Below, in pieces: positions 9,503-53,179 of a DNA stretch of 64,000 nucleotides (positions within the stretch are counted from its first letter, which is position 1; each line of letters opens with the position of its first letter). Below the pieces are notes generated by a model that saw only the letters and a list, made by a program, of their open reading frames with translations, searched no databases and was not told the DNA's origin. The DNA comes from a virus (Duplodnaviria; Caudoviricetes), in the IMG/VR virus record IMGVR_UViG_3300031853_000006, positions 52,897 to 116,896 of that record, one strand, 5' to 3'. The translations under genes and the position numbers were made by a program.

Positions 9503-10066
9503 ATGAAAGTATTCAGAGAGATGGAAACAGATACAAATACCTTCAAAATAGGAGACAGGATCGAAGTACAGTTCGGGAATGAATCTCACTACGCAACAGC
9601 CATCCAGCAAAGAGGCTATGAAATGCTCTTTCTAACCGATGATTACCTCGACGATGCAATGCCTATGAATCCAACACCCTTGACTGAGGGAGGATGGGCA
9701 GAGAGTGAACTCAGGAAAAGACTGCAGAGTGTAGCAGAAACCGTCGACATCAAAGATCAGCTAGTGCCCTTTGAAAACGGGGACCTTTTGACTCTCTTAA
9801 GTATTCAAGAGATGTTCGGACTTGACAAGAGCTTCAATGAATGCGAAGGGCAGATTGAGTGGCTGAAAGATCGCAGACACAGAATCACAGAAAGAAAGGG
9901 CGATCCTTACGAATGGGGATGGCTGCGCTCAGTCGTATCCGCGTCGAGTTTCGCGATTGTCGACAGTGACGGCTGTGCGGACCGTGGGGGTGCGTCCTAC
10001 GCTCATGGCGTCTGCCCAGCTTTCCTGATCAAGAATACTATCACAGAAAGCGAGGTAGAGGAATGA
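9503..10066 (+). CDS. DUF6273-like (CLec-fold) protein, candidate DGR target
   Basis: 'GW..SELR..L' and C-terminal 'WGWLRS....F..V...G......A....GVCPAF'. Confidence 0.7.
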   Translation: MKVFREMETDTNTFKIGDRIEVQFGNESHYATAIQQRGYEMLFLTDDYLDDAMPMNPTPLTEGGWAESELRKRLQSVAETVDIKDQLVPFENGDLLTLLSIQEMFGLDKSFNECEGQIEWLKDRRHRITERKGDPYEWGWLRSVVSASSFAIVDSDGCADRGGASYAHGVCPAFLIKNTITESEVEE

Positions 10067-10611
10067 AGAACTCAATGGAGGTATTAAGAGAGATCGAGAC
10101 AAAAACAGATCGTTTGCAGGTCGGGGATAGAATAAAAGTTAGCTTTTCAGGAGAAGAGCACTATGCAACGGCTATTCAGCAAAGAGGCGATGTGATGCTC
10201 TTTCTGACTGACGACTACCTCGATGACGCTATGCAGATGAACCCTACAGACACGACTGAGAGAGGATGGGCAGGGAGTGAGCTCAGAAAAAGACTGCAGG
10301 ATATAGCGGACAACACAGATATAAATGATCAGCTGATACCCTTCGAGAACGGAGATCTTCTGACTCTTCTGAGCATCCGGGAGATGTTTGGACTCGATGA
10401 AAATTTTGATGAGTGTGACGGTCAGATTGAATGGCTAAAGGATCGCAGACACAGGATCGCATTAAGAAAAGGAGAATCCAACGAATGGGGGTGGCTTCGC
10501 TCCGTCATGTCGGCGACGCATTTCGCTAATGTCTACAACAATGGGTTAGTGAACTACTACTACGCGGGGAGTGCTATTGGCGTCCGTCCAGCTTTCCTGC
10601 TTAAGTTATAG
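10063..10611 (+). CDS. DUF6273-like (CLec-fold) protein, tandem paralog, candidate DGR target
   Basis: Highly similar to 9503 except in the C-terminal WLRS...GVRPAF segment. Confidence 0.7.
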   Translation: MKNSMEVLREIETKTDRLQVGDRIKVSFSGEEHYATAIQQRGDVMLFLTDDYLDDAMQMNPTDTTERGWAGSELRKRLQDIADNTDINDQLIPFENGDLLTLLSIREMFGLDENFDECDGQIEWLKDRRHRIALRKGESNEWGWLRSVMSATHFANVYNNGLVNYYYAGSAIGVRPAFLLKL

Positions 10612-11050: not shown

Positions 11051-11764
11051 TTATCGATAAAGCACGCCTGAATAATTAGGAGTGCTGATATTTGTTACGC
11101 CGTCCATTCGGTCTGCTATCCACATATTGGAATTCAAGTCTGTTATCACATCACTACATTGCCATTGAGGATAAGCTCCGTATATCTGTGACCCTGTTGT
11201 GATGCCTATACGGTAAGTGCTTACTTTGAATGATGATCCTGGATTATCATGATTGTATATCTTAGTACTGGAGCTCGTCTGATTTGCAAGCAATGTAAGG
11301 CTTGACGAGCTATTGAAAGTTGCCCAATCTACAAAACTAAGAGGAACCTCAGTCTTACTAGCAGTGCTTAACTCTCCCGTCAAGTAAAGTGATCCTGTAA
11401 TGGGACGTATTACTGACACATAGCTTGTATAATCAGTGTTGTAATTACAACCAAACTGCACAGAATCAGCATCTTCTATGAATCTGTATGCTACGTCCCG
11501 ATCGGGTGAGAGAGATATGCAGGTCTGCCCATACCAAATCATCGAAGTATGCAGATCTAATGGTTGGTAAGCAGATGAGGCGATCGTCACTGAAGGTGTT
11601 ATCGACGTATTAAAGTGTATGATAAGTAGGTCACCCTTATGCAAGTTTGTGAGCGTACAACTAGCCCCTCCTGGCCTAATTATCGCTGACGCAATCGGGA
11701 GCGCAAGCGTTATTATTCCGCCCCCTCCTGAAGAGCTATCTTGGTTTGAAATAATTGTACTCAT
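11051..11764 (-). CDS. MS[TCS]xx...GGG family, S/T/Y-rich adhesin-like protein
   Basis: MSTIIS...GGGG N-terminus; AAGGAGG RBS; GTCGACCTT motif upstream. Confidence 0.7.
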   Translation of the reverse strand: MSTIISNQDSSSGGGGIITLALPIASAIIRPGGASCTLTNLHKGDLLIIHFNTSITPSVTIASSAYQPLDLHTSMIWYGQTCISLSPDRDVAYRFIEDADSVQFGCNYNTDYTSYVSVIRPITGSLYLTGELSTASKTEVPLSFVDWATFNSSSSLTLLANQTSSSTKIYNHDNPGSSFKVSTYRIGITTGSQIYGAYPQWQCSDVITDLNSNMWIADRMDGVTNISTPNYSGVLYR

Positions 11765-11823
11765 AATATATTTGTTTCCTCCTTTACTTGAAAAATAAAT
11801 AAAGTGTTTCTCCTACTTGACAC

Positions 11824-11845
11824 TATTTAAGGTCGACCTTAAATA
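11824..11845. promoter_or_regulatory. 22-bp perfect palindrome; two back-to-back ACCTTnnATA motifs
   Basis: TATTTAAGGTCGACCTTAAATA centred between divergent paralogs. Confidence 0.75.
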
Positions 11846-11897
11846 CTTTTAAGTAGGAAAACACTATACTTTTTCTTTGTAAGGAGGAACATATATT

Positions 11898-12641
11898 ATG
11901 AGTACAATAGTTGAATCAATCGGCGGCGGATCTGCGTTGGACATACTAGACGAAAATGTAACTGTAACTCAACTCTGGTCGTCTACCGATCAACGATGGC
12001 AGGAAATATCGGCATACATGCAAGACGATGGCTTATATGTATATACTAACATAGGTAATGCGACCTATCCACAATTCACTGTGAGGATAATGTTACTGAA
12101 GAAGGAAGCAAAGATATACCCAGTTATCATTCAAGGGTGTGCAGGCTCTAGCGACTATTATGCTCAATTTGTTGCGGAATCGCTTGACTCATTCCATGTG
12201 TATCCTTCCGGTAACGGTGCAACAGCTAGGCTATACAAGTTAGCTGATTCTAAATTATCATCTCATATCGAGTATAAAGGGTTATTGAGTGCGAACAACT
12301 ATAACATATACATACCTAAATCATATGGAAGCGGGATGTATATTGTTGTGGGGTTCAATAAAGATGCAACAAAAAGTTATATAGGGGCCTCGTCGGTGTC
12401 ATTAACTGGATTATGCGTGTCCATTCCTTCCGATGATTATCTGATGTGGTTGCCCGTTTCGCATGTTGTCACATCAGCTGCTATTCAATCTTACTCACCT
12501 TATGGGTACAGCGCGATAGCGAGCTATAACGGAGGTCATGGCGAACTTTATAACGGAAGTTTCTTCGATCGTCTGACCACTTATTATAACAACAGTAATC
12601 CAGGTAAGGCAAATACAGCATTGCTATATAAGATAGTATAA
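11898..12641 (+). CDS. MS[TCS]xx...GGG family, S/T/Y-rich adhesin-like protein
   Basis: MSTIVESIGGG N-terminus; AAGGAGG RBS. Confidence 0.7.
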   Translation: MSTIVESIGGGSALDILDENVTVTQLWSSTDQRWQEISAYMQDDGLYVYTNIGNATYPQFTVRIMLLKKEAKIYPVIIQGCAGSSDYYAQFVAESLDSFHVYPSGNGATARLYKLADSKLSSHIEYKGLLSANNYNIYIPKSYGSGMYIVVGFNKDATKSYIGASSVSLTGLCVSIPSDDYLMWLPVSHVVTSAAIQSYSPYGYSAIASYNGGHGELYNGSFFDRLTTYYNNSNPGKANTALLYKIV

Positions 12642-20985: not shown

Positions 20986-21381
20986 ATGAAACGAGTTATC
21001 AGAGCTTCTGAATCAACTGCAGATACTAACCCATCTGAATGGGAAGATGTTAAGTGGAAAATAGATTATAAAGGCATTGGCAATCGGTATATGTTTAAGG
21101 GCAAGGCCAATAACGATCGTGGTATCTTTATTGGAGATGTAGTTAAGCTAGCAGCTTATGACGACGCCGATTACTACTGGGCTCGAGTTAGAGGTAGCGG
21201 ATTAGTAGAATTCATTCACAATGGTCGTGTTCAGGATAAGATGCAACTTCCTAATTATCTTGATTTTGCAGAGGATTATGAGACTGTTGCTGAGTATTTC
21301 GAAGTAGAGGTAATGGATCCAATCCTGGATGTGCTTGTTGATTACAATAAGAGCATCAAGCCTCGCATGATGTATGACTGA
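20986..21381 (+). CDS. MKRxIxAS-tagged hypothetical protein
   Basis: MKRVIRASE N-terminus; AGGAGG RBS. Confidence 0.7.
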   Translation: MKRVIRASESTADTNPSEWEDVKWKIDYKGIGNRYMFKGKANNDRGIFIGDVVKLAAYDDADYYWARVRGSGLVEFIHNGRVQDKMQLPNYLDFAEDYETVAEYFEVEVMDPILDVLVDYNKSIKPRMMYD

Positions 21382-30607: not shown

Positions 30608-31006
30608 ATGAAAAGGGTCATATACGCAACTGCAACATACAGCACAAACAGCGAAGTCAAGGACTGTGCGAAATATGTACGCGACCTTATCAAGCAAACT
30701 AAAACTCCATTTACAGTGACGCTGGTAGATCCGTATTCGGACAAGAAGATGAATCAGAGAGTTAAACTCAATGCGCAAGTTTCGCAAAAGGGCAAGAATA
30801 ACTACTTCGTGAACGTCGAATACAATATGATGATCGACGAAGCCGATGAGGAAGAAAGCAATGACTTTCTGAATAACACAATAGATGACGTCATTGATGC
30901 AGCAATCGACAAGTATCCGATGCTTTCTATCGGTAGCAAGACAATATCCATCGGCGGATATCGTGGTCGAGTAGTTACTGGAATAACTGTCCGATCAGAG
31001 GGGTGA
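30608..31006 (+). CDS. MKRxIxA-tagged hypothetical protein
   Basis: MKRVIYATA; ACCTTCAATA motif at 30555. Confidence 0.7.
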   Translation: MKRVIYATATYSTNSEVKDCAKYVRDLIKQTKTPFTVTLVDPYSDKKMNQRVKLNAQVSQKGKNNYFVNVEYNMMIDEADEEESNDFLNNTIDDVIDAAIDKYPMLSIGSKTISIGGYRGRVVTGITVRSEG

Positions 31007-31012
31007 AACATA

Positions 31013-31216
31013 ATGAAAAGATGGATCCATGCAAAATCCACGATAATAGACGCAGCGTCAAACATAGGGACCTATAGGGGCGTGTCTTATGGAATGGAAG
31101 ATTCAGGCGATCAGCTTTATTACTTTGTAAAACGCAACGGTGAAGTAGAGTACGCTGAACTAGAAGACGAACTCTTCACACTAATAGATGAATACATCGA
31201 AAGGGGATACAAATGA
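31013..31216 (+). CDS. MKRxIxA-tagged small protein
   Basis: MKRWIHAKS...IIDAAS. Confidence 0.65.
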   Translation: MKRWIHAKSTIIDAASNIGTYRGVSYGMEDSGDQLYYFVKRNGEVEYAELEDELFTLIDEYIERGYK

Positions 31217-31554
31217 AACGATACATCCACTCATCACACGACTCAGAGAAAACATTCAAATACGAGATCTGGCAGATCAGTCACACACGTGAAGTTGATT
31301 ACGCATTCATGAGATGGAGTTATGCAGAGGATAATGGTTTCGACTTTGATGATTACAGCTTCGTTTACGAAGGAGAAATCGAAGAGAGCTCGGTAGAATG
31401 GGCATTGGAGAAACTTTTCACGAAGTTCAATTTACATCATCCGGCAGACTTCAGAGGTCATTCACTTAGTGTCAGCGATATAATCAAGCTAGACAACAAG
31501 TTCTACTACTGTGATTCCTTCGGGTTTGAAGATATCACAGATGTAATCCGATAA
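31213..31554 (+). CDS. YodL-like domain protein with MKRxIxSS tag
   Basis: 'YEIWQI', 'VYEG', 'LEKLFTKFN..HPADFRGHSLSVSDII', 'YYCDSFGF' YodL signature. Confidence 0.85.
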   Translation: MKRYIHSSHDSEKTFKYEIWQISHTREVDYAFMRWSYAEDNGFDFDDYSFVYEGEIEESSVEWALEKLFTKFNLHHPADFRGHSLSVSDIIKLDNKFYYCDSFGFEDITDVIR

Positions 31555-31667
31555 ACTAATAAGCTCACGTAGCTACATTAGTTATAGAAGAATCGAGTGC
31601 TGACCGAAGCGCCAGTGCTCTTTTTCTATGAAACCTAGAAGGGGAAATTAAGGGGAGGTCAAGCGAC

Positions 31668-32084
31668 ATGAACATATCAATACTTACTTGCAATGTTCAA
31701 CCCAGGATGCTCAGCGACACCGACGTAATGATTGAGAGTGCTACGATCATTATTGTAGTGTTTGTCGTTTTAGCAGTTATTGTCAACGCTCGCCTTGCTG
31801 TATCCAGAGATAGAGTTATTTATTTTGACACCTGGCTCTCAATAATCTGGGCCAAAGTAGCTGCGATGCATCTGAAGTATAACAATACCTCTCGAGTTAC
31901 CGCAGAACTTGAAGAAGCCAAATGCAAAACTTGGTTCTACTTAAATAGATCACAGATCAAACAACAGCTGACTGACGAAGGCGTATTAGAAGACGGTTGG
32001 GGAGTTAAGTCAGTGATCATTGAAGCAGTTTACAACATGTATTGCGAAGCAAGAGATTCAGCTGATGAAGAAATCGTTAAATAG
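31668..32084 (+). CDS. hypothetical membrane protein
   Basis: ORF with GGAGG RBS and one TM segment. Confidence 0.55.
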   Translation: MNISILTCNVQPRMLSDTDVMIESATIIIVVFVVLAVIVNARLAVSRDRVIYFDTWLSIIWAKVAAMHLKYNNTSRVTAELEEAKCKTWFYLNRSQIKQQLTDEGVLEDGWGVKSVIIEAVYNMYCEARDSADEEIVK

Positions 32085-32147
32085 AGTGTAGGCATCTAGT
32101 TCTTGTATAATTGCTGCAAGAACTAAGCATTGCAAAGGAGTACACTC

Positions 32148-32420
32148 ATGAACAAGGCTGAACGAATAATTGAACGAGCTGTAAGCAGCACATTTGCAAG
32201 ATTTCACAAGATCTCAAATGACGAACTCAGAAAAACATTCTGTTACAGCGATCTTTTCTTTCTGATTGAAAGGATGTTACGTGAAACCGCACAACTAGTT
32301 CTTACAGAGGACTACACTCCAGAAGAGCTTGCCAATGCTATCGCAGAGTACAGATGGGATCTCGTTTCATATCCGAGCGAGGTCAAATCGGACAACCGAT
32401 GGGCAAGTCTTTTGCAATGA
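32148..32420 (+). CDS. hypothetical protein
   Basis: ATG after AAAGGAG. Confidence 0.6.
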   Translation: MNKAERIIERAVSSTFARFHKISNDELRKTFCYSDLFFLIERMLRETAQLVLTEDYTPEELANAIAEYRWDLVSYPSEVKSDNRWASLLQ

Positions 32421-32436
32421 GGTGAAACTTAGAAAG

Positions 32437-32757
32437 ATGGAAACAAATCAGATAACACTGCAAGAAGAGCTTACACAGCTACTAGCTGATCCGGCTATTC
32501 AGCATGCGTTCAACGAAGCTTCTAAACGCGCACAGCAGCAGAACTTAGTAAGCCCAAAGGCAGAAGGTCGAGTATTAACACAGCCTGAAGCAGATCTAGT
32601 CATCTCAACAGTAGAACAAGTTCTGCAGAATGTGGAAATAATCAGATACACCGAACCAGAATTACGCAAAGCTTACATGGAAGGCTACCAAGAAGCGTGT
32701 AAGAATATAACAGAGATGATCAAGATCTCTGAAGCCGCAGAGGAAAGCAAATACTAA
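32437..32757 (+). CDS. hypothetical protein
   Basis: ATG after GAGGTG. Confidence 0.6.
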   Translation: METNQITLQEELTQLLADPAIQHAFNEASKRAQQQNLVSPKAEGRVLTQPEADLVISTVEQVLQNVEIIRYTEPELRKAYMEGYQEACKNITEMIKISEAAEESKY

Positions 32758-32779
32758 CAGAGAGGAGCCCTAACCTACA

Positions 32780-33055
32780 ATGAAAAGACCATTTGAAGCA
32801 TTTAGTTATATCGGACCATTCCAGAATGACGACGGAATGTGGACTGCAGAAGCACTCGGCAAGCTCGGAGTACATGTAGACATCGATACAGAAGCAGATT
32901 CTGTAAAAGATATCTGCACGGTTCTCAAGAAAGAAAAAATCATTCCATCCGCAGATATGCGGAGAGTCAACGCCACTATTGGCACCGACATAATCGAAGT
33001 ACACGAGAAAAAGGGCATGAAGCCGCTTTGTAGACTAGTAATCAAGCGCATCTGA
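32780..33055 (+). CDS. hypothetical protein
   Basis: ORF with GAGGAG RBS. Confidence 0.65.
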   Translation: MKRPFEAFSYIGPFQNDDGMWTAEALGKLGVHVDIDTEADSVKDICTVLKKEKIIPSADMRRVNATIGTDIIEVHEKKGMKPLCRLVIKRI

Positions 33056-33071
33056 AATAAAGGAGAACACT

Positions 33072-33320
33072 ATGCGAGCTTTTGTCAAAAGCCCTAAGCA
33101 GACTGAAAGATGTATTGTCGATAATTTCGGCATCCGCGAAAGCGATCGAGCAATCATGATGCCGGTCTACAGAGACGACGGGGCATATATAAGAGATATC
33201 TGGGTTCCGAAATCATTGATTGTTTCCAGAAGGCCTCATGGCGTAGGCTGCACAGCTTTTGAGATTAAGTCATGGTTCTTGCAGAAAGAATTAGAACCTG
33301 ACCAGACAATCGGAGAGTAA
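33072..33320 (+). CDS. hypothetical protein
   Basis: ORF with AAGGAG RBS; 'IWVPKS' motif. Confidence 0.65.
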   Translation: MRAFVKSPKQTERCIVDNFGIRESDRAIMMPVYRDDGAYIRDIWVPKSLIVSRRPHGVGCTAFEIKSWFLQKELEPDQTIGE

Positions 33321-33359
33321 TTCTAAAACATTTTCAATACACATTCACATTACAAAAAT

Positions 33360-33412
33360 GCAGAAAAAGGCCACTTGCTGATCAATACGATCGGCTTGTA
33401 GGCCTTTTCTGC
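33360..33412. terminator. bidirectional terminator-like stem
   Basis: GCAGAAAAAGGCC...GGCCTTTTCTGC between convergent genes. Confidence 0.6.
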
Positions 33413-33444
33413 AACTTATGAGTACAATTGTTAGTTAAGTAGGC

Positions 33445-33885
33445 TTATCTGGCGTAAATAGTTCCATTCCGAGCAAACTGCCAATGTGTGCAATAGTATC
33501 TGTATTGGCTTCCTTCCTGTTCGAGGTAACCCCTGACCATCATGATCCAAGCAGTAGGCCCTCCGTTATAATATGAAGTATATTGAAGATAACACGTGAG
33601 TGTGGTTTGTAGACTAGCTAGGAACTCATCTACTGCTGATTTAGTAGCTATTCCACTGCATCCAAAATAAATATCATTTGTTTCAGGTAGCTTCTGTTGC
33701 AGCATCCACTCGTTATACGAATCATATCCTAATTGCTGTTTTATAGCAGCGGTTACAACGCTTGTATATTCGTCCCAGCTACTTGCACTGTGCGATTCAT
33801 TTGGAAGAGGATTGCTCACAGTTACTGGTAACATTGTCCATTCTCTACTACCTGATCCGCCACATCCGTTCACATATGTTGACAT
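33445..33885 (-). CDS. MS[TCS]xx...GGG family adhesin-like protein
   Basis: Start MSTYVNGCGGSG at 33885 after GGAGG; GTCGACCTT upstream (about 33957-33949). Confidence 0.7.
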   Translation of the reverse strand: MSTYVNGCGGSGSREWTMLPVTVSNPLPNESHSASSWDEYTSVVTAAIKQQLGYDSYNEWMLQQKLPETNDIYFGCSGIATKSAVDEFLASLQTTLTCYLQYTSYYNGGPTAWIMMVRGYLEQEGSQYRYYCTHWQFARNGTIYAR

Positions 33886-33984
33886 ATTTTCTATGTACCT
33901 CCATTTTCGATAAATAATCACGTCATTACAACGTGTCGTCGAAAATATAAGGTCGACAGGTGTGCGCGGAGAATCTAATATTAA

Positions 33985-34701
33985 CTATCTATGTTTAGTC
34001 ATATATCCAAAAGTTGTATTCATAGAAACTGAAGTACATGGTTTTACGCCGCTACCTTTTTGTATGCAGAATCCAGCTAATATCTGATATGGATATAGCT
34101 TGAAAAAATAATCAGCGTAATATTCAATTATCAATTGATAAGGTAATTGAAAATCCTTGTCAGAATAAGAAGTTCCCGCAAACTTGTAAGTTAATTCTGT
34201 GTTTCCTGTCCAGCCTGCACTTGCACTTCGATGATCTATGAAGTTAGCACCTTGATTAAATTCTTGAGGTGGCAATTCAACTAAGGTAGTAAGGGCAGAT
34301 TGCTGTATGCCTTGTGAACATGAATAGTAAGTATCCGCTTGGATTCTCTTATACACTGTAAATACAGGATAAACAACACTACCCGTTAATTTCATAGTTA
34401 GCGGGACAGGAGCACCGCTTGCTTTAGACACACGGTACGCATAGTGATACGAATAGGTAGCATTCGGTTGAAACATTGCGTTTCCGACCTTAATGTATCC
34501 GTCGTTACCTAACTCTTCTACTACTACGCTGCCTGTGCTGTCCTGGAACGTTATTGGATATCCAGATAATATCAGATCTCCTTCTTGCCAGTTTGCAGTT
34601 ACGGATTCATTAAAGCCGGTTAAGTAACCAATGAATGCACACGCAAGCCCCATCTTTGGTACAGAACTCGGCGTCAGCTGACTACTCACATAACAACTCA
34701 T
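33985..34701 (-). CDS. MS[TCS]xx family adhesin-like protein
   Basis: MSCYVSSQL; AAGGAGG; GTCGACCTT upstream. Confidence 0.7.
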   Translation of the reverse strand: MSCYVSSQLTPSSVPKMGLACAFIGYLTGFNESVTANWQEGDLILSGYPITFQDSTGSVVVEELGNDGYIKVGNAMFQPNATYSYHYAYRVSKASGAPVPLTMKLTGSVVYPVFTVYKRIQADTYYSCSQGIQQSALTTLVELPPQEFNQGANFIDHRSASAGWTGNTELTYKFAGTSYSDKDFQLPYQLIIEYYADYFFKLYPYQILAGFCIQKGSGVKPCTSVSMNTTFGYMTKHR

Positions 34702-34872
34702 ATTTCTATATAACCTCCTTAAAAAGAAATTTCAACTTCATGACAAGAAAAATATAAGGTCGACACCATTTTCTCAGTCGAAACAAGGCTTCGCATACAC
34801 TCGACCTTTAATATGTCCGTCACACGAAACACATGAGAAAAGCTTTTTAATATAAAGGAGGAAAAAGAATAA

Positions 34873-35550
34873 ATGAGTTGTTATGTCAGCAGTCAGCTTA
34901 GCCCAAGTTTAGGCGGAGCATCCGGTAATTGGGAATATAAGTTCATCGGAGGAGTACAGTCAGGTCAAACAGGTTATGCAGAGTTACCTAATTTGAAAGT
35001 AGGGGATGTAATAGCATTTGGACCCAGTAACACCTCATATTTAAGCAATACTACTGTGCAAATGCAGAATGCAAGTTACAAAATAGTAGGGAATGTGCTT
35101 AGTGGAGGAGTAGGGGTGTATTCAAGAGCATCTATAGATGGTAGCCCTTCATTTTATATAACTTCTATATCAGGTACACCTACTATATCTATATCTAGTA
35201 ATTCAGGTTATCGATACATGTGCGTTATTAGCCAATCTAGTACTAAGCATACCGTGTTAAAAACAAACATCTCAGATAATCAGAATATTGGATTAGTATA
35301 TCAACCGGAGTTAGCTTCGGCTGACTACGCATACTGGACATTTGATAGTTCTGGTTCAAGTACTTTCTACTTGAATTTTTCTAATCAAAATGAGGTATCT
35401 TTCGAACATTATATCTCGCAGTCAGTATATGGATATAGGTCATATCCAGGAACATTGATACAAGATTATGCAGTTAATCTATCCAATATGTCACTTGCTA
35501 CTCAACTTAACACTTCTACTAATTATGTCAAAAAATACATAAGCATTTAA
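34873..35550 (+). CDS. MS[TCS]xx...GG family adhesin-like protein
   Basis: MSCYVSSQLSPSLGG; TCGACCTTTAATA at 34801. Confidence 0.7.
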   Translation: MSCYVSSQLSPSLGGASGNWEYKFIGGVQSGQTGYAELPNLKVGDVIAFGPSNTSYLSNTTVQMQNASYKIVGNVLSGGVGVYSRASIDGSPSFYITSISGTPTISISSNSGYRYMCVISQSSTKHTVLKTNISDNQNIGLVYQPELASADYAYWTFDSSGSSTFYLNFSNQNEVSFEHYISQSVYGYRSYPGTLIQDYAVNLSNMSLATQLNTSTNYVKKYISI

Positions 35551-35662
35551 GTAGTCCGACGCCATCGCAACCCCTCGACCTTTAATACTACACAACAGTA
35601 CGAAACACATTTGAAGTGTTTCGCATACAACTAATTGAGTATTAAAGGAGGTACATTAACTT

Positions 35663-36160
35663 ATGAGTAGTTATGTTGGATCAACAGGTACGAGTGGAGG
35701 CGGAGAGTTAAAAGACCCTCTCATGATATATCAGAAAACATCAGGCACCACCGAAAACGTGTATATTAGCTTTAGCGATACTCAAAGTTATATTCAGCAG
35801 GGATACACCTACATGTTTTTTGCGTTAAACGGAGAGTATAAATCAGGGGACACATATCGAGGCGGAGGGTTAGTAGGTAATTCGTTTTTGCCTTTACAAA
35901 TCATAGTAAAATTGTACGAGTTGCAGCGGCAAGATGCTGGAGGGAGCGGAGGTAACGGGTATTACTTCTGGGAGCGGTTATCTGAGTCTTCAACAACTAT
36001 GACGGCTCATCCATTCGGCGTATACTACTGTTATAACGCATCGAACACTGCATATGCGTATCCGAACTACATTAGCGGTAGCGGGCAGTTAGAAGTGGCA
36101 GTTCGGCGTAGCAGTACAGATAATGGCCGATATGTGTCACCCACAATTTATGTTATGTAA
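35663..36160 (+). CDS. MS[TCS]xx...GGG family adhesin-like protein
   Basis: MSSYVGSTGTSGGG; TCGACCTTTAATA at about 35575. Confidence 0.7.
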   Translation: MSSYVGSTGTSGGGELKDPLMIYQKTSGTTENVYISFSDTQSYIQQGYTYMFFALNGEYKSGDTYRGGGLVGNSFLPLQIIVKLYELQRQDAGGSGGNGYYFWERLSESSTTMTAHPFGVYYCYNASNTAYAYPNYISGSGQLEVAVRRSSTDNGRYVSPTIYVM

Positions 36161-36321
36161 TTAGTGTCGCAAGTACATTATCACATAATTGTACTCATAA
36201 TAAAAGAAAAAGCTCCTTTCTTCTTGGGAGCTTTTTCTATGTATTGTTATAGGAAATCTTTTAAGCCCTTACCTGCAAGCACTGAGGGCTTATTTTTTTT
36301 TGAATAATTTTAAGAAAAGTC

Positions 36322-36350
36322 TTGACTTTTTCATATAGATATCATATAAT
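36322..36350 (+). promoter_or_regulatory. conserved sigmaA-type early promoter repeat
   Basis: TTGACT-17-TATAAT. Confidence 0.8.
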
Positions 36351-36398
36351 ATACTTGTACCAGATAACATAGTACCTACACCGAAGGAGGTAACACTT

Positions 36399-36560
36399 AT
36401 GGAAAGAAGATACTTAGTAACAACTCAGGTACCCGAAACAGAAAGCACTTACACAAACTACATCGAGGCACATAGCGCTCAGGAAGCTGTAGATAAGGTT
36501 AGAGTATTTGATCCAGCTCCTGTCATCGAAGTATCAGTCATCGTTAAGGATTGGAAATGA
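36399..36560 (+). CDS. 53-aa hypothetical protein
   Basis: AAGGAGG RBS; MERRYLVTTQ...IEAHSAQEAV; not in ORF track. Confidence 0.6.
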   Translation: MERRYLVTTQVPETESTYTNYIEAHSAQEAVDKVRVFDPAPVIEVSVIVKDWK

Positions 36561-36590
36561 TACAAAGGACTTGAAAGGAGTGTAACGCAT

Positions 36591-37364
36591 ATGACGATAG
36601 AGACCTTAGAGAAGAGAATAGCCGGAAAAGAAAAAGCAATAGCTACGTTGGAGAAAAAGATACAGCGAATAGAAGCAGCTAAAGCAACTAATTGGGAAAA
36701 GAACCCATACTATTATGATGAGCAAGATCTTAAATGGGCTAAAGAAGAACTCGCATCTGAGATGAATGTTTTAGTTAAGTATCGGGAGCAGCTTAAACAG
36801 GAGCAGGAAAAAGTAGCAAGCAGAAATGTAGAAGCTCTTGTAACATTCTTAGAGACCTGGAAGGAGGATTGCATTAGTTACTTTTTAGAGGAGCATCAAA
36901 AGTACCTAGAGGCTCGCAAAGAATACTACGCAGCTGGTAAGCAGTTTTGCGAAAGATTTAATTCACGCAGGGCATTAGGGCTTACAACAGATGAGATCAA
37001 CAAGCTTGAAGCAGACTACAAAAAGTTGAGAGAAACGTTTAAGCAGAGATGGAGACACGTAATACAATTTGATCAGGGAAGCCTCTCTTGGGAAGAAACC
37101 ATGAGGAAACATCTTGAGATAGAGAAAAATCGCAAGTACGATGATATTATCAAGAGGACTAACAAGGTTGTCGGAAAGATAGCAGACGCCTCAGGCCTAC
37201 ACGTAGGTGCAAAAGGAGACCTCAACGGCATTATAATCGGCACAGAAGGGAAGGCTAAAGTAGAAACAATTGGCGCCGGAGGGTACAACGAAGACGTAAT
37301 TCTTGAAAGCGGACGTCACGGTCAGTGTTATCATTTCAGGACACTTATTCACGAGATCAACTAA
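36591..37364 (+). CDS. conserved coiled-coil phage protein
   Basis: C-terminal 'LNGIIIG..G.AKVETIGAGGYN...QCYHFRTL'. Confidence 0.7.
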   Translation: MTIETLEKRIAGKEKAIATLEKKIQRIEAAKATNWEKNPYYYDEQDLKWAKEELASEMNVLVKYREQLKQEQEKVASRNVEALVTFLETWKEDCISYFLEEHQKYLEARKEYYAAGKQFCERFNSRRALGLTTDEINKLEADYKKLRETFKQRWRHVIQFDQGSLSWEETMRKHLEIEKNRKYDDIIKRTNKVVGKIADASGLHVGAKGDLNGIIIGTEGKAKVETIGAGGYNEDVILESGRHGQCYHFRTLIHEIN

Positions 37365-37377
37365 AGGAGGATAACAT

Positions 37378-37671
37378 ATGGATCAGAAAGTAACATTAAG
37401 AGGAAATACTCGCACAGAATGCAAGAACTGTAACTTCTGTGAGCATATTATGCAGACAACTGATCTATCGACTGAACTGGGCTTGCAGAAATTCTTCACA
37501 GGACTGATTGTCGTATCGTTATATAAGAAGGGAGGATGTCCTCTTAACACTGAACTCAACTTGTTAGGGCTCATCACTCCTGAAGATCGTACACAGTCAT
37601 TCATATCAGCCTATCGACAAACAGTTAATAGTGCTGAAATCATCGAGAAGGAGAACAGAATCCATGACTAA
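37378..37671 (+). CDS. hypothetical protein
   Basis: AAGGAGG RBS; CxxCxxC. Confidence 0.6.
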   Translation: MDQKVTLRGNTRTECKNCNFCEHIMQTTDLSTELGLQKFFTGLIVVSLYKKGGCPLNTELNLLGLITPEDRTQSFISAYRQTVNSAEIIEKENRIHD

Positions 37672-37849
37672 TCTTTCTAAGCTGGATGAAACTAATTCAG
37701 CAAAACCTAATTCCGCCTATCTGAGCGAGCAGGAATACAGAGCGTTGCTCAGTCAGCGGATGAAACAATACAGAGAATACTTGTCGAAACGCGAAAAATT
37801 CGCAAACACTCGAATGACCGAAAAGGGGGACAACAGTAACCATGACTGA
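37664..37849 (+). CDS. hypothetical protein
   Basis: ATG after AAGGAG. Confidence 0.5.
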   Translation: MTNLSKLDETNSAKPNSAYLSEQEYRALLSQRMKQYREYLSKREKFANTRMTEKGDNSNHD

Positions 37850-38090
37850 AGTTAACACTATTGAGATTGCTGACGCACCGCTGAAGTGCGAGATTGTATT
37901 TCAGCCCGATGAATTGCTCAAGCTGCAAGCTATCGGAGCACACAGAGGAGAATCCATTGGTGAAGTAGTATCAGATGCCTTATACTCAAGGTATCAATCA
38001 CTGCGTAGCGTAGGTGCGTTTGAAGAAATAACAGATGAAAACATGCAGTTAAGAAAAATCAAAGTCCTGCGGTTCTGGAAAGATAACTGA
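37842..38090 (+). CDS. hypothetical protein (possible ribbon-helix-helix)
   Basis: ORF; short strand followed by two helices. Confidence 0.55.
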   Translation: MTEVNTIEIADAPLKCEIVFQPDELLKLQAIGAHRGESIGEVVSDALYSRYQSLRSVGAFEEITDENMQLRKIKVLRFWKDN

Positions 38091-38122: not shown

Positions 38123-38797
38123 GTGTATTTAATGAATGTTGTGATAACAGGATCGTCTGAAGGAATGGGACACGCAACTGCTGCTAAGTTTGTCAATGAA
38201 GGTCACTCAGTGATCGGCATAGACATCATGCCTTGTCCTCCTGACTTAAAAGATTGCCCCTTATATAAGCATTGTAGAGCAAACATTGCAGATCCTAACG
38301 AGCTGCCCGATATTCCTAATGTAAACATATTGATAAACAATGCCGGAGTTACCGGTACGGGAATGGATATTGATACAAATCTGAAAGGTCTCATGGAAGT
38401 TACTCGTAAGTATGCACTTGACAATCCGGCAATCAAGTCAGTCCTTAATCAAGCAGCAGCATCGGCACATATGGGAACAGAGTACGATGAGTATGTTGCA
38501 TCCAAAGGCGGAGTTATCGCTTATACTAAATGGGTTGCTAAAGAGATTGCAAAATATGGCGCAACTTGTAACAGCTTGTCATTCGGAGGAGTATTGTCAG
38601 CTGCTAACAGGCCCGTTATAGAGAACGATGATTTGTGGCAGCAGATCATGGACTTAACACCGCTCAAGAAATGGACAACTACTGAAGAAGCAGCCGAATG
38701 GATCTATTTTATGACCGTGATTAACAAATCCTGTTCAGGTACCGACATAATAATAGACAACTTGGAAAGCTTGAACGGAGTGTTTGTCTGGGAGTGA
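38123..38797 (+). CDS. short-chain dehydrogenase/reductase (SDR)
   Basis: ITGSSEGMG Rossmann motif, NNAG, YVASK catalytic motif. Confidence 0.9.
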   Translation: MYLMNVVITGSSEGMGHATAAKFVNEGHSVIGIDIMPCPPDLKDCPLYKHCRANIADPNELPDIPNVNILINNAGVTGTGMDIDTNLKGLMEVTRKYALDNPAIKSVLNQAAASAHMGTEYDEYVASKGGVIAYTKWVAKEIAKYGATCNSLSFGGVLSAANRPVIENDDLWQQIMDLTPLKKWTTTEEAAEWIYFMTVINKSCSGTDIIIDNLESLNGVFVWE

Positions 38798-38814
38798 AAG
38801 GAGCAACAATAGTA

Positions 38815-39183
38815 ATGCAACCGAAGAAAGCAAATTCGTACACTGTGAAAGTGAAGAATAAGCTTAGCAAGAAAGATCTTAAAAAGCGGAAGAAAGCTAG
38901 GAAGCCGAAATACTCTGCATACATGTACACGGTGGCGGAGCCAGCTCACGGCGGCATCATGTATTCGACATTTGTAATGCTCTGTGACGGTAAGTATCCA
39001 TCCATGGAGGATATACTCGAAATCTCTCGTAATATCGGGCCTATAGTCTGCATACAGCGTCTTTCGCTTGAGGGCATGGAAGAGCAGATCAAAGATCAAG
39101 AAGCAATTCGGAGAGGTGACTTAATCTTTCCAAGTCTGGACGACTACAACGATGATGACGAAGATTTTGACCCGTTCAGTTAA
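38815..39183 (+). CDS. hypothetical protein
   Basis: ATG after AAAGGAG. Confidence 0.6.
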   Translation: MQPKKANSYTVKVKNKLSKKDLKKRKKARKPKYSAYMYTVAEPAHGGIMYSTFVMLCDGKYPSMEDILEISRNIGPIVCIQRLSLEGMEEQIKDQEAIRRGDLIFPSLDDYNDDDEDFDPFS

Positions 39184-39214
39184 TCAAAAGCGTATAACAT
39201 GGAGGAGTTGAATA

Positions 39215-39919
39215 ATGAAAAAGATTATAGTAACAGCTTTGTTGCTTTTTGTAGCAACGGTAGTTGTCAGTAGTAACTCTGCGGCCAAAGAAGTCAAAGA
39301 GCCATTAGGTAAATGGTACATTTCGAGCTACAAGCCGAGTGATAACACTCCGGCAGGCAGCTATCAAACATCATCAGGAGCCCGTGCTATTCCGTGGGCT
39401 ACTTGTGCTGTTGACCAGAGAGACCCGCTTGTGCCCATAGGGACAACAATTGAAATTGAGGGACTAGGCAGATTCAAGGTCAACGATTATGGTGGCTTCG
39501 GAAGTTACAACGGAGGCCGACGAGCAGTTGACGTATTCATCAATGACAGCGATGCGGGATTCTTAGTAGAGAGGAAAGTGTACCTTATTCGTGAAGAAAC
39601 ACCTCTCGAAAAGACAAACAGAGTACTCAAGGAACGACGAGAAGCACAGGCTAAACCATTCAAAGTACTTCATGATCCTCGATTGCTTCCTTGGCAAGTA
39701 ATTACAGATCCAAAGATTGTACCGTCGGGTAACATCACTATACAGTGGAAGATGGATAAGTTTCAGCCGTTCCAAGTTCTCGAAGTAGTTGATACTAAGA
39801 AGAATATTGGTAATGTCATCTATGTAGGTGATTTCCATAGAGCATCTGTATACAGAGAGGTATCATTACACGAGGTACACGAGAAAGAGTCAGGATATGG
39901 TCAAGCAGATCGGACTTAA
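39215..39919 (+). CDS. secreted 3D-domain (lytic transglycosylase-like) protein
   Basis: Signal peptide; 'TSSG...CAVD...PIGT.I.IEG.G...V.DYGG......VDVF'. Confidence 0.8.
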   Translation: MKKIIVTALLLFVATVVVSSNSAAKEVKEPLGKWYISSYKPSDNTPAGSYQTSSGARAIPWATCAVDQRDPLVPIGTTIEIEGLGRFKVNDYGGFGSYNGGRRAVDVFINDSDAGFLVERKVYLIREETPLEKTNRVLKERREAQAKPFKVLHDPRLLPWQVITDPKIVPSGNITIQWKMDKFQPFQVLEVVDTKKNIGNVIYVGDFHRASVYREVSLHEVHEKESGYGQADRT

Positions 39920-45087: not shown

Positions 45088-45221
45088 CAACAAAAGTAAA
45101 GTTATAATTCAGTTAAAGGCGAATTAACTTCTCTGACTGCAGCATGAAATAGCCTCTAAACGGCGACCTTTAATATCGGCATCATATTCACCATAACAAG
45201 ATAAACAGGAGGCGAAGAACG

Positions 45222-45481
45222 ATGTCGACAATGGTTACTTTGAGGCGAGTATAGAATATAGAGACAGCCCCTATCTAAATATGCGCAACACTTATGCGAG
45301 CAATTCCAACTGGAGTAGTCAGAATTTTACAAGTTTCAAATTAGGTACAGCTTTTACGCCTAGCGGATCTGAGTTAATATCTCGAATGACTGTAACAACT
45401 CCGTCAAATCTATATCGCACAACTTCCTTAGTTATTAACGTCGGCATTGATCAAGAGCTTATCCTAGCGATTGTGGGATAA
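45222..45481 (+). pseudogene. frameshifted short member of the MS[TCS]xx family
   Basis: GCGACCTTTAATA motif, AGGAGG, ATG 45222 MSTMVT; stop at 45252, but the -1 frame continues (EASIEYRDSPYLNMRNTY...) to 45481. Confidence 0.5.
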
Positions 45482-46484: not shown

Positions 46485-47000
46485 ATGAAAAGATTCATTA
46501 AATCATCGCAAACAGCTGAAGGAGTAAACAGAATTGAAATTGATTTCTACGGAGTTGATCTTGAAGAGGAGGTCGAAGCTGCCAGAAATAATCCAAGGAA
46601 GGTATTCAAGAATGCTGATGTAGTCATTCGAGATGTTAAGGCTTACTTAGAAGACAAAGGATTGAAAATTTTGCGAACTTCTAGAAGTAATCATAAGAAT
46701 TCAGACTCTACATACTACGATGTCGATATTAAAGTAACTAACAATAAGGGTAAGTATGAATTCATTTACCTTCGTATATCTGATCATCCTGAATCAAGTT
46801 TGAATGATCTTCCGAGAAAGAACTATCATGATAGAATAACTCGTTCGTACAAAGGGCTAAAAGATACTGATAATGTTGACGGCTTGTATCACTACGCATC
46901 TATTGAAGTAACAGGAAAGCAATTTAATAACTACGACAGAGCAATGAATCGAGTCAAAGAGCGTATTGATGAGATTCTGAAAGGAGTTGGTTTAGAATGA
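46485..47000 (+). CDS. LRIS[DN]H-motif protein with MKRxIxSS tag, paralog of 7839-8405
   Basis: 'SDSTYY...YLRISDH...IEVTGKQFNNYDRAM'. Confidence 0.75.
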   Translation: MKRFIKSSQTAEGVNRIEIDFYGVDLEEEVEAARNNPRKVFKNADVVIRDVKAYLEDKGLKILRTSRSNHKNSDSTYYDVDIKVTNNKGKYEFIYLRISDHPESSLNDLPRKNYHDRITRSYKGLKDTDNVDGLYHYASIEVTGKQFNNYDRAMNRVKERIDEILKGVGLE

Positions 47001-47480: not shown

Positions 47481-47918
47481 ATGAAGCGATACGTCAAAGC
47501 ATCTTTAACATCTGGGCTAATCGGCATCTGGTGGGTCTACAACGATACTGTAATTGCAGATTACAAAACACTGGATGACGGATACAACGATGGAAACTTC
47601 ATTAACTATGACGAAAAGAAAAACCATGCAACGGAGTGGAATAAGCTAATCAAGGAGTACTTTCCCGAACAGGCAGAAGAGATCATTGCATTTGGTTATA
47701 AAGGAATAGAAAGAGGTCGAGTAATCTACAATCTCAGAACACAAGCTTACGAAGTAACGTGCAGTCAAGAAGTTTACAAGGACTCGAAACAGCGTAAGCT
47801 TATTGTTGATGCGTTCGAACTCAACGATTGCAGATATGACTTCTTCGTTCTGAGGCACTATTATGTAGCGAAGCTCACCGGAAATCCTGCACTTGATCAG
47901 TTTGAATATGGTATATAG
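47481..47918 (+). CDS. MKRxVxAS-tagged hypothetical protein
   Basis: 'GIWW...H...W...Y...ERGRVIY...I..AF.L'. Confidence 0.7.
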   Translation: MKRYVKASLTSGLIGIWWVYNDTVIADYKTLDDGYNDGNFINYDEKKNHATEWNKLIKEYFPEQAEEIIAFGYKGIERGRVIYNLRTQAYEVTCSQEVYKDSKQRKLIVDAFELNDCRYDFFVLRHYYVAKLTGNPALDQFEYGI

Positions 47919-52366: not shown

Positions 52367-53179
52367 ATGATGTCAGAAAAAGTCGAGCTGCTCGGAAAAG
52401 GTCTGTATGCAGATATTCCCGACCAGCTTACACTCAAAGCAATTCCAACTGTTTCCGAACTGGACTACGTAGGTTCAGAAGATTTTGAGGAAACAATGCT
52501 CAATGTTATTTTCCCAGAAGCTATCGAAGAAAAGATCAACTTTCATAACCTACTGGAAATCGACTTCCAGTGGATTTGTCGTTGTTTGAGATTTCTCAAC
52601 TATGGACCGTATTTCACAACGAATACTATTTTATGCGAAAACTGTGGCCCGGTTCGTATTGAGTCTCAAGTTGATCTTAGAACAATTGATTGTAAAGCCC
52701 TGCCTGAGAATTTCAAGAACGAGCTTATAATCAAGAAAGGCGAGCTGATTGATTACAAAGAAGAGATCCATCTTCATATGTTAACTATTCAGGAGTCCCT
52801 CAATCTCAGAAAGGACAACCTGTTCAAGCGCGTCAATGGAGAGATCAATACAGACCTAGGAAGAATCTGCTATTCCATATCTTCGATGGGCATGGATGCA
52901 CATTCAACTCCGATCAGTGCGAAACTTGAAATAGAGAAGAATATGAGCCCCGCAGACTATAAAGTGCTCAGGAGTAGAGTTCAGGAACTTACAGATTATG
53001 GATTGAGGGGAGGTGGCAGATGCCAGTGTCCGCAGTGTAAATCGAATAACGCTGCATTTATTGCACTAGCAGATGACCGCTTTTTTCGTCCGACCGTGGG
53101 AGATCTCCGGAAAGGGCGAGATGATAGAAGTCTCAGGGGAGTTAAAGACCCCACAGGAAATAAGGCAGAGGCTGTATGA
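52367..53179 (+). CDS. baseplate hub assembly chaperone (T4 gp26-like)
   Basis: 'L..ID.Q.I...LR..NYG', CxxC, C-terminal CPQC...FF; precedes the tape measure gene. Confidence 0.7.
   Translation: MMSEKVELLGKGLYADIPDQLTLKAIPTVSELDYVGSEDFEETMLNVIFPEAIEEKINFHNLLEIDFQWICRCLRFLNYGPYFTTNTILCENCGPVRIESQVDLRTIDCKALPENFKNELIIKKGELIDYKEEIHLHMLTIQESLNLRKDNLFKRVNGEINTDLGRICYSISSMGMDAHSTPISAKLEIEKNMSPADYKVLRSRVQELTDYGLRGGGRCQCPQCKSNNAAFIALADDRFFRPTVGDLRKGRDDRSLRGVKDPTGNKAEAV

Follow-up and report, generated by a model that had tools for sequence, protein, structure and literature searches.

A dispersed family of gut-phage cassettes with a private promoter variant, a shared five-residue N-terminal peptide and charge-poor orphan products

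The internal proteins of the T-even phages (IPI, IPII, IPIII and the IP-locus) are unrelated, fast-evolving small proteins that have only a short conserved N-terminal peptide in common (PMC3012670). In gut phages, stand-alone single-domain DUF6273 proteins are candidate receptor binders; the 'tgt2' proteins of this kind in gut Bacillota phages, and Mtd of Bordetella phage BPP-1, are small (about 230-290 amino acids [aa]), single-domain and encoded apart from the fibre genes (PMC10743442). Here we describe a family of phage genes, named A to G, that recalls both systems. It lies in the last 64 kb of a 116,896-bp IMG/VR record (IMGVR_UViG_3300031853_000006; CheckV completeness 78%), and this whole stretch of 64,000 nucleotides (nt), positions 52,897 to 116,896 of the record, is what we call the window. 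The sequencing run that contains this phage of rumen bacteria is a bovine gut metagenome, and identical proteins are also found on a 145,798-bp contig. The phage encodes a tail sheath, a portal, an NAD ligase, an amidase endolysin and several HNH-type homing endonucleases. The family consists of six intact genes for proteins of 146-247 aa and one decayed copy, all of which begin with a variation on the same five residues and stand behind a promoter motif variant found at the starts of no other genes of the phage (Table 1).

Like the T-even internal proteins, the family places a short N-terminal tag on largely unrelated bodies and is cassette-like and variable between relatives. Its tag, however, consists of five residues and a Gly/Ser tether, in which we recognise no protease site, and its proteins are charge-poor and fibre-like, whereas the internal proteins are DNA-compatible and highly charged. 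The size, single-domain build and genomic placement of the family resemble those of the 'tgt2' proteins and Mtd, although no family member reaches Pfam DUF6273. Morons offer another parallel, since the units have their own promoter motif, A to D sit between terminator hairpins and two transcription units, and presence varies by strain; classical morons, though, have host-type promoters and prophage expression, whereas the family uses a variant of the phage late-type motif (a predicted promoter) and its units are paralogous. Tail-fibre and tailspike families also combine a conserved N-terminus with a variable binding body, but the anchors described for them span tens to hundreds of residues, while the family peptide, a putative anchor, has five. 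Docking of a strand contributed by a short N-terminal segment is known from decoration proteins such as lambda gpD.

The reading that we tentatively favour, without rating it as probable, is that each unit is a late cassette expressed on its own, and that the encoded proteins evolve fast, bind surfaces and have an address peptide in common. Each cassette would comprise the variant late promoter, a 50-70-nt leader, a Shine-Dalgarno (SD) sequence and an open reading frame (ORF), and the family would have grown by head-to-head (E/F, B/C) and tandem (C/D) duplication. The bodies would then have diverged beyond recognition while selection kept the promoter variant and the first five residues, and copies would decay (G and two stubs described below) or be lost or swapped between strains through recombination at the repeated promoters. 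The products, which are charge-poor, rich in Ser, Thr, Gly, Tyr and Asn, probably all-beta and similar in make-up to the phage's own receptor-binding fibre tips, may be extracytoplasmic modules that bind ligands on the host surface or in the environment and whose synthesis falls late, alongside that of the virion and lysis proteins. The peptide M-S-[TCS]-hydrophobic-[VI] with its Gly/Ser-rich tether would serve as an address or assembly tag, most plausibly as a short strand that attaches the bodies to one partner. We infer the late timing, the beta fold, the extracellular binding role and any docking; that the proteins are surface-binding accessories is suggested by their fibre-like make-up, by a promoter of late type and by their location next to the endolysin and two DUF6273 genes. 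An earlier note on this DNA had proposed receptor-binding or decoration tips that dock on a common virion site through the N-peptide; our results agree with this idea in direction but do not prove it. The observations of that note were partly confirmed and its interpretation partly supported.

Ten ATGs in the whole 116,896-bp record encode MS[TCS][IYM][VI], and seven of them are the SD-bearing starts of the family (MSTYV in A, MSCYV in B and C, MSSYV in D, MSTII in E, MSTIV in F and MSTMV in G). The earlier note had listed seven such genes; all seven starts exist, but the one at 45222 (G) is a 10-codon relic, and two stubs had gone uncounted. G reads as a decayed or frameshifted copy, unlike the six intact genes, because it meets a stop after 10 codons while its -1 frame remains open. 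The stubs are the ATGs at 33418(+) and 36198(-), which are truncated family starts. The family thus has nine 5' ends (six intact, G and the two stubs), three of them dead. GGAGG is found 9-13 nt before the ATG in every one of the seven units, at a spacing of 10-13 nt in 6/7 as against 7-9 nt in 52 of the 77 GGAGG-bearing genes of the phage, and the long spacing could reflect deliberately weak translation or a family-specific initiation context. Motif, leader and SD belong to each member, and the A-D cluster lies between operons with terminator hairpins on both sides, in keeping with the proposal that each unit stands alone.

Table 1. Coordinates of the family units, their promoter motifs and leaders, the two stubs and other genes discussed (window positions; genes on the minus strand start at the higher coordinate; UTR, untranslated region).
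Feature	Position	Strand	Details
Gene A	33445..33885	-	146 aa; starts MSTYVNGCGGSGS; sole member with predicted helix-like stretches
Gene B	33985..34701	-	238 aa; starts MSCYVSSQLTPS; weak full-length paralogue of C
Gene C	34873..35550	+	225 aa; starts MSCYVSSQLSPS; absent from one sister-strain contig
Gene D	35663..36160	+	165 aa; starts MSSYVGSTGTSGGG; weak collinear motifs in common with the phage's DUF6273 fibre tips (lead)
Gene E	11051..11764	-	237 aa; starts MSTIISNQDSSSGGGG
Gene F	11898..12641	+	247 aa; starts MSTIVESIGGGS; 84% orthologue P0004 in sister strain starts MSTLLEASGGGS
G, decayed copy	45222..45481	+	MSTMVTLRRV, stop at 45252-45254; S/T/N-rich -1 frame open 45224-45481
Promoter motif of A	33945..33956	-	TCGACCTTATAT
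Promoter motif of B	34752..34763	-	TCGACCTTATAT
Promoter motif of C	34801..34812	+	TCGACCTTTAAT; with 10 upstream bases forms a 23-nt direct repeat (87%) with the D promoter
Promoter motif of D	35575..35586	+	TCGACCTTTAAT; followed by a 10-bp leader hairpin, 35599-35625
Divergent, overlapping promoter motifs of E (-) and F (+)	11825..11844	.	common palindromic core AAGGTCGACCTT
Promoter motif of G	45163..45174	+	GCGACCTTTAAT
(G)AAACAC boxes	34824-34839 (C), 35600-35615 (D), 11800-11812 (E), 11858-11866 (F)		
Left stub, promoter-less F-like 5' end	33416..33438	+	MSTIVS*; 2-3 nt after hairpin 33359-33413; antisense in the 3'UTR of A
Right stub, promoter-less E-like 5' end	36178..36203	-	MSTIM*; directly inside terminator 36205-36238; antisense in the 3'UTR of D
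Tandem pair of stand-alone DUF6273 (C-type-lectin-like) genes	9503-10066 and 10063-10611	+	187 and 182 aa; Pfam 1.9e-6 and 1.2e-8
MKR-type genes, examples in the window	20986-21381, 30608-31006, 31213-31554, 46485-47000, 47481-47918		

The motif (T/G)CGACCTT(W)(W)AT stands 58-87 nt before the ATG in all seven units. Thirty-one ACCTTnnAT sites precede a gene start, and CG lies directly before the core in the seven family sites and in 0/24 others (Fisher test by our own calculation, about 4e-7); the remaining 11 copies of CGACCTT in the genome are inside genes and have no WWAT tail. The CG promoter variant is private to the family, which bears out the proposal of the earlier note that each gene has a private upstream motif in the form of an extended ACCTT. 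The other ACCTTnnAT sites precede the portal, the sheath operon, the endolysin operon, a peptidase and ORFs of 270 and 906 aa in the tail/baseplate region, and it is plausible that the core marks the late-promoter class of this phage. All seven units carry this late-type core, which is placed 30-140 nt before structural and lysis genes. The leaders of four units (C, D, E and F) contain a (G)AAACAC box at a distance of 22-25 nt downstream from the motif start; that of D forms the 5' arm of its leader hairpin.

The codons of the N-peptide vary more than its residues. Ser2 is encoded by AGT in five units, by TCA in A and by TCG in G. Over the first 12 codons of B and C, 11 of the 12 residues are kept, with four synonymous changes and one conservative Thr/Ser change, and beyond these 12 residues identity is about 22%. 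Because of the synonymous changes between B and C and the use of both Ser codon families, the N-peptide is, as far as codon patterns tell, held by selection at the protein level, and the same two observations rule out nucleotide-level conservation of the start region. The orthologue of F, P0004 on a Logan contig, begins MSTLL where F has MSTIV; four of the first eight residues differ, and M-S-T-hydrophobic-hydrophobic and a glycine run are kept. These differences indicate that the tag is a pattern rather than a fixed sequence. Conservation of the peptide in homologues was to be expected on the earlier proposal, and in this one orthologue it extends to the pattern but not to MSTIV itself. Of the Gly/Ser linker described behind the peptide, a Gly-Gly at residues 9-16 is present in 5/6 proteins, but not in B. 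A lipoprotein or other signal peptide was considered and ruled out, as there is neither a hydrophobic signal nor a lipobox.

The bodies had been described as unrelated, and for most pairs the similarity is indeed at noise level. B and C, however, align from end to end (blastp, 25% identity, 7e-5). When the bodies alone were compared with shuffled sequences by Smith-Waterman alignment, B-C reached z 3.2, C-G and E-F gave hints and the other pairs were noise. In hhalign, E aligns with the B+C profile over its first 47-50 residues, and a motif N-x-x-x-GD-hydrophobic near residue 40 is common to B, C and E.

The adhesin-like composition claimed for the family was upheld. Asp, Glu, Lys and Arg (DEKR) together make up 9-15% of the family proteins compared with a genome median of 26.6%; the members rank 1, 2, 4, 5, 9 and 15 for lowest charge among 125 ORFs, the lowest value in the genome being that of C (9.3% DEKR). 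Ser, Thr, Gly, Tyr and Asn account for 39-50%, compared with 28%. The other charge-poor proteins are three fibre proteins of about 496 aa, the spare fibre tips, a 482-aa protein of the tail region and a few short or membrane ORFs, such that the family keeps company mainly with DUF6273 fibre proteins and tips. Four of the fibre proteins and tips that were scanned match Pfam DUF6273, one of them slightly under the curated cut-off.

Traces of duplication are seen in both orientations. Head-to-head duplication is indicated by the quasi-palindromic E/F leader and by a 37-nt inverted repeat (84%) at the B and C starts, and tandem duplication by C/D repeats in promoter, leader and SD. For a comparison of strains, contigs from four cattle/gut metagenomes were placed on 31500-38000. 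One contig of run X2, which comes from another cattle sample and another study, joins 34783, in the region upstream of the C promoter, to 35577, in the D promoter, with 19 other letters between them. The contig thus is without cassette C, and the joint falls at the 23-nt direct repeat of the C and D promoters. A comparison of cassette content among related phages had been suggested, and in this sister-strain contig the content does differ. Farther along, the contig leaves the alignment at 35608 and rejoins it at 36271. B is 99.6% identical in X2, with flanks at 90-97%; for run X4 the identities are 95.6% for B and 91% for the start of D. Parts of A, C and D left uncovered by the short, low-depth contigs of X2-X4 were not taken as absence. 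That B is closer than its flanks in the X2 window 34230-34783 hints at recent cassette exchange or at several strains in the sample.

Homologue searches left the family nearly alone. No member had a significant match in Pfam, PHROG, NCBIfam or PADLOC, the two weak rows of the last (E 0.013 and 0.032) being at noise level, and a sequence search of the PDB with D returned only antibody light chains (E 0.2-0.6), a composition effect. A word-index search of 5.8 billion proteins with C, F and A found the queries themselves and the 84% orthologue of F, and a HMMER profile of B+C run against 1.84 billion representatives matched only B and C. There was no match for A, D, E and F by tblastn in 50,697 phage records, for C, F, D and E in IMG/VR scans, or for the F alignment in 185,579 species genomes. 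A DNA pattern of promoter, SD and peptide found seven matches in IMG/VR and JGI metagenomes, none of them a family member; all were chance matches in high-G+C or non-coding contexts, bar one unrelated MSRLI protein. Contigs carrying the gene at 36591 or the endolysin were not syntenic and held no family member, and both the family and the motif are missing from a 120-kb relative (G001; 32% G+C, sheath 53% identical). Judged by these searches, the family is private to this lineage, and the 84% copy of F in a sister strain is its sole relative outside.

One member offers a lead to a known fold. D and the DUF6273 part of one spare fibre tip are similar by pairwise blastp (0.002) and Smith-Waterman alignment (z 6.1), and D carries FFAL, YKSGDTYRGGG, LYE, YYFWER and a C-terminal VSPTIYVM in the order of the tip motifs YFAL, FKGDxTYGxGG, WYE, YWWERSP and SPFG[CV][LM]. 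The hallmark motifs FAL, YE, WWERS and C-terminal SPFG[CV][LM] are found in none of the other five members, and in Pfam DUF6273 (PF19789) no member matches at E<=0.1 and D does not match even at E<=10. It is possible, though on the whole doubtful, that D is a DUF6273 domain, and we treat this as a lead only. The true DUF6273 genes of the phage, namely the fibre tips and the tandem pair in Table 1, lack both the MS peptide and the CG promoter variant; the pair lies just upstream of E/F, has a WGWLRS motif and is of normal charge.

Several observations weigh against the surface-binding reading. Against a hidden Markov model (HMM) of the tips, D came out highest of the members with 6.6 bits (E 0.36 among 962 ORFs), which is at noise level, and hhalign with the tips gave 1.7% for D within a range of 0.0-1.7% over the members. 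No usable fold was obtained: AlphaFold2 (AF2) reached a predicted local distance difference test (pLDDT) score of 32 for F, modelled with its orthologue, and 33 for D, while the scores in the ESM Atlas were 0.39 for C and 0.37 for A, whose models had no informative structural neighbours. Some support for the reading, no more than a hint at this confidence, comes from the AF2 models, which consist of strand nearly throughout apart from a coil in the first ~20 residues. A, partly helical as predicted from sequence, may differ in architecture from the others. Composition is circumstantial support. Among the searches run, no homologue of characterised function came to light, and the late timing is inferred from the identity of the genes that bear the ACCTT motif, not from transcripts. 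The X2 joint is one contig, with a depth of 3 and 30-nt sides. Finally, a five-residue peptide that varies conservatively in its sole orthologue may be too short to dock alone.

An alternative is that the family proteins are carried inside the capsid or ejected, with the N-peptide serving as a capsid-targeting sequence as in the T4 internal proteins and the bodies being injected to act against host defences. A conserved N-terminal tag on unrelated, fast-evolving bodies is just what the T-even internal proteins have (PMC3012670). The family promoter, too, is of late type. Encapsulin cargo is also addressed by a short peptide and a flexible linker. The family proteins, however, are the least charged of the genome, unlike internal proteins that are embedded in DNA; a candidate head-protease motif, [VI]-x-[AS]-[AST], follows the peptide in only 1/6 (V-G-S-T in D); and a larger N-tag family of the same phage fits a cargo role better. 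About 22 genes in the record have starts of the form MKR[WVYFL][IV]x[AS] or, written more broadly, MK[RK][WVYFL][IV]x[AS][STA] (e.g., MKRWIHAS and MKRVIRAS) on otherwise dissimilar proteins with 27-35% DEKR. Given the low charge of the family and the better-suited MKR proteins, T4-like capsid targeting is less likely, and we consider the capsid-internal explanation improbable. The MKR tag itself contains a candidate head-protease motif of the form given above; the presumed early expression of some MKR genes speaks against that family being simply cargo of the capsid. Somewhat better placed, yet still unlikely, is the idea that the products are made late but stay out of the virion and work during lysis or at the surface of the host. 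Masking of receptors on debris, exclusion of superinfection and binding to gut glycans after release are conceivable tasks, and the N-peptide would be an export or processing leader of the double-glycine type instead of a docking strand. The Gly-Gly of five members, the extracellular-like composition and the positions agree with this idea, E and F adjoining the endolysin and G a multi-pass membrane protein with its own ACCTT promoter. B has no Gly-Gly, on the other hand, proteins of 150-250 aa are atypical cargo for the double-glycine route, and no peptidase-containing transporter was seen, though no search was aimed at one. Known double-glycine leaders, moreover, are longer (15-30 aa) and have a conserved hydrophobic spacing that is not evident in the family. 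It is also conceivable, although we think it a poor bet, that the family is the historical residue of serial cassette duplication, with no common function and with bodies that are drifting or dying orphans. The dead third of the family 5' ends, the lack of homologues in the searches and the dispensability of C in one strain fit such a history. What speaks against it is that six ORFs of 146-247 aa remain open in DNA of 38-42% G+C, that the CG extension (7/7), Ser2 and the B/C dodecapeptide have been kept while the bodies are saturated with change, that the F orthologue is undisrupted and 84% identical over its full length, and that the extreme composition is common to all members.

The two stubs raise a further question: are they relics or regulators? 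The A-D cluster is flanked by a 23-nt inverted repeat (83%), each arm of which is an inward-pointing family start without a promoter. The right stub is identical to the E start region over 18 nt; the left stub and F agree over 17 nt but for one position. In 117 kb, the 14-mer TTATGAGTACAATT is found in exact form three times, at the E start and in both stubs, and the F start is one mismatch away. Either the stubs are what a C-D-type unit left behind when it underwent palindromic duplication, or they function as antisense elements, situated in the 3'UTRs of the A and D mRNAs immediately before the terminators. In the second case they would pair with the starts of the E and F mRNAs and cross-regulate the loci as a hierarchy or by mutual exclusion. 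The antisense role would draw on the perfect complementarity of the right stub to E and the near-perfect one of the left stub to F, on the rarity of the 14-mer, and on the like placement of both stubs beside a terminator; 3'UTR-derived regulatory RNAs have this terminator-adjacent layout. The right stub, with no minus-strand gene to its right, is transcribable solely in antisense. Among 193 gene starts, the family starts are the best predicted duplex partners of the stubs, but the margin over unrelated sites is small (-21.7 vs -19.4 kcal/mol for the best non-family sites), and a palindromic duplication, or recombination between conserved 5' ends, would account for the stubs equally well. We regard regulation by the stubs as a minority prospect, albeit one to be taken seriously. 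The stems of the stub-flanking hairpins differ by compensating changes (GGCC/GGCC vs GCTCC/GGAGC), and the stub 14-mer is identical. We give little credence to a more elaborate version in which the family is a self-regulating repertoire, where the five-residue strand and tether plug the bodies into one virion site, the private promoter variant sets them apart from other late genes, and the antisense stubs make the two loci repress each other so that virions or strains display different combinations. If true, it would be host-range or adhesion switching of a new form, without an invertase or a retroelement.

Under the surface-binding reading, the family would be an example of a private, fast-diversifying set of putative binding proteins outside the fibre genes, reached by a route in which the whole expression cassette is duplicated and only the promoter and the first five codons are kept. 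Should the peptide prove to be an address tag, no shorter signal for phage assembly or targeting would be on record, and it would offer a handy means of displaying foreign proteins on a gut phage. The promoter variant provides a clean test of late-regulon sub-classes, and the 3'UTR stubs make RNA cross-talk between paralogues testable. The proteins are orphans among 15 billion sequences, and any structure of one would be a new data point.

Two neighbouring features deserve mention. A transposase-like ORF of 421 aa (phrog_506, 6e-35) at genome positions 38257-39522, outside the window, lies behind a late-type motif, ACCTTAAATA. To the right of the A-D cluster, a strong sigma-70-like promoter (36322-36350; TTGACT, 17 nt, TATAAT) is located within 36274-36490, where contig depth is 4- to 15-fold in excess with many loose ends in all four runs, and this pattern indicates that similar promoter sequences are present in many other contigs of these samples.

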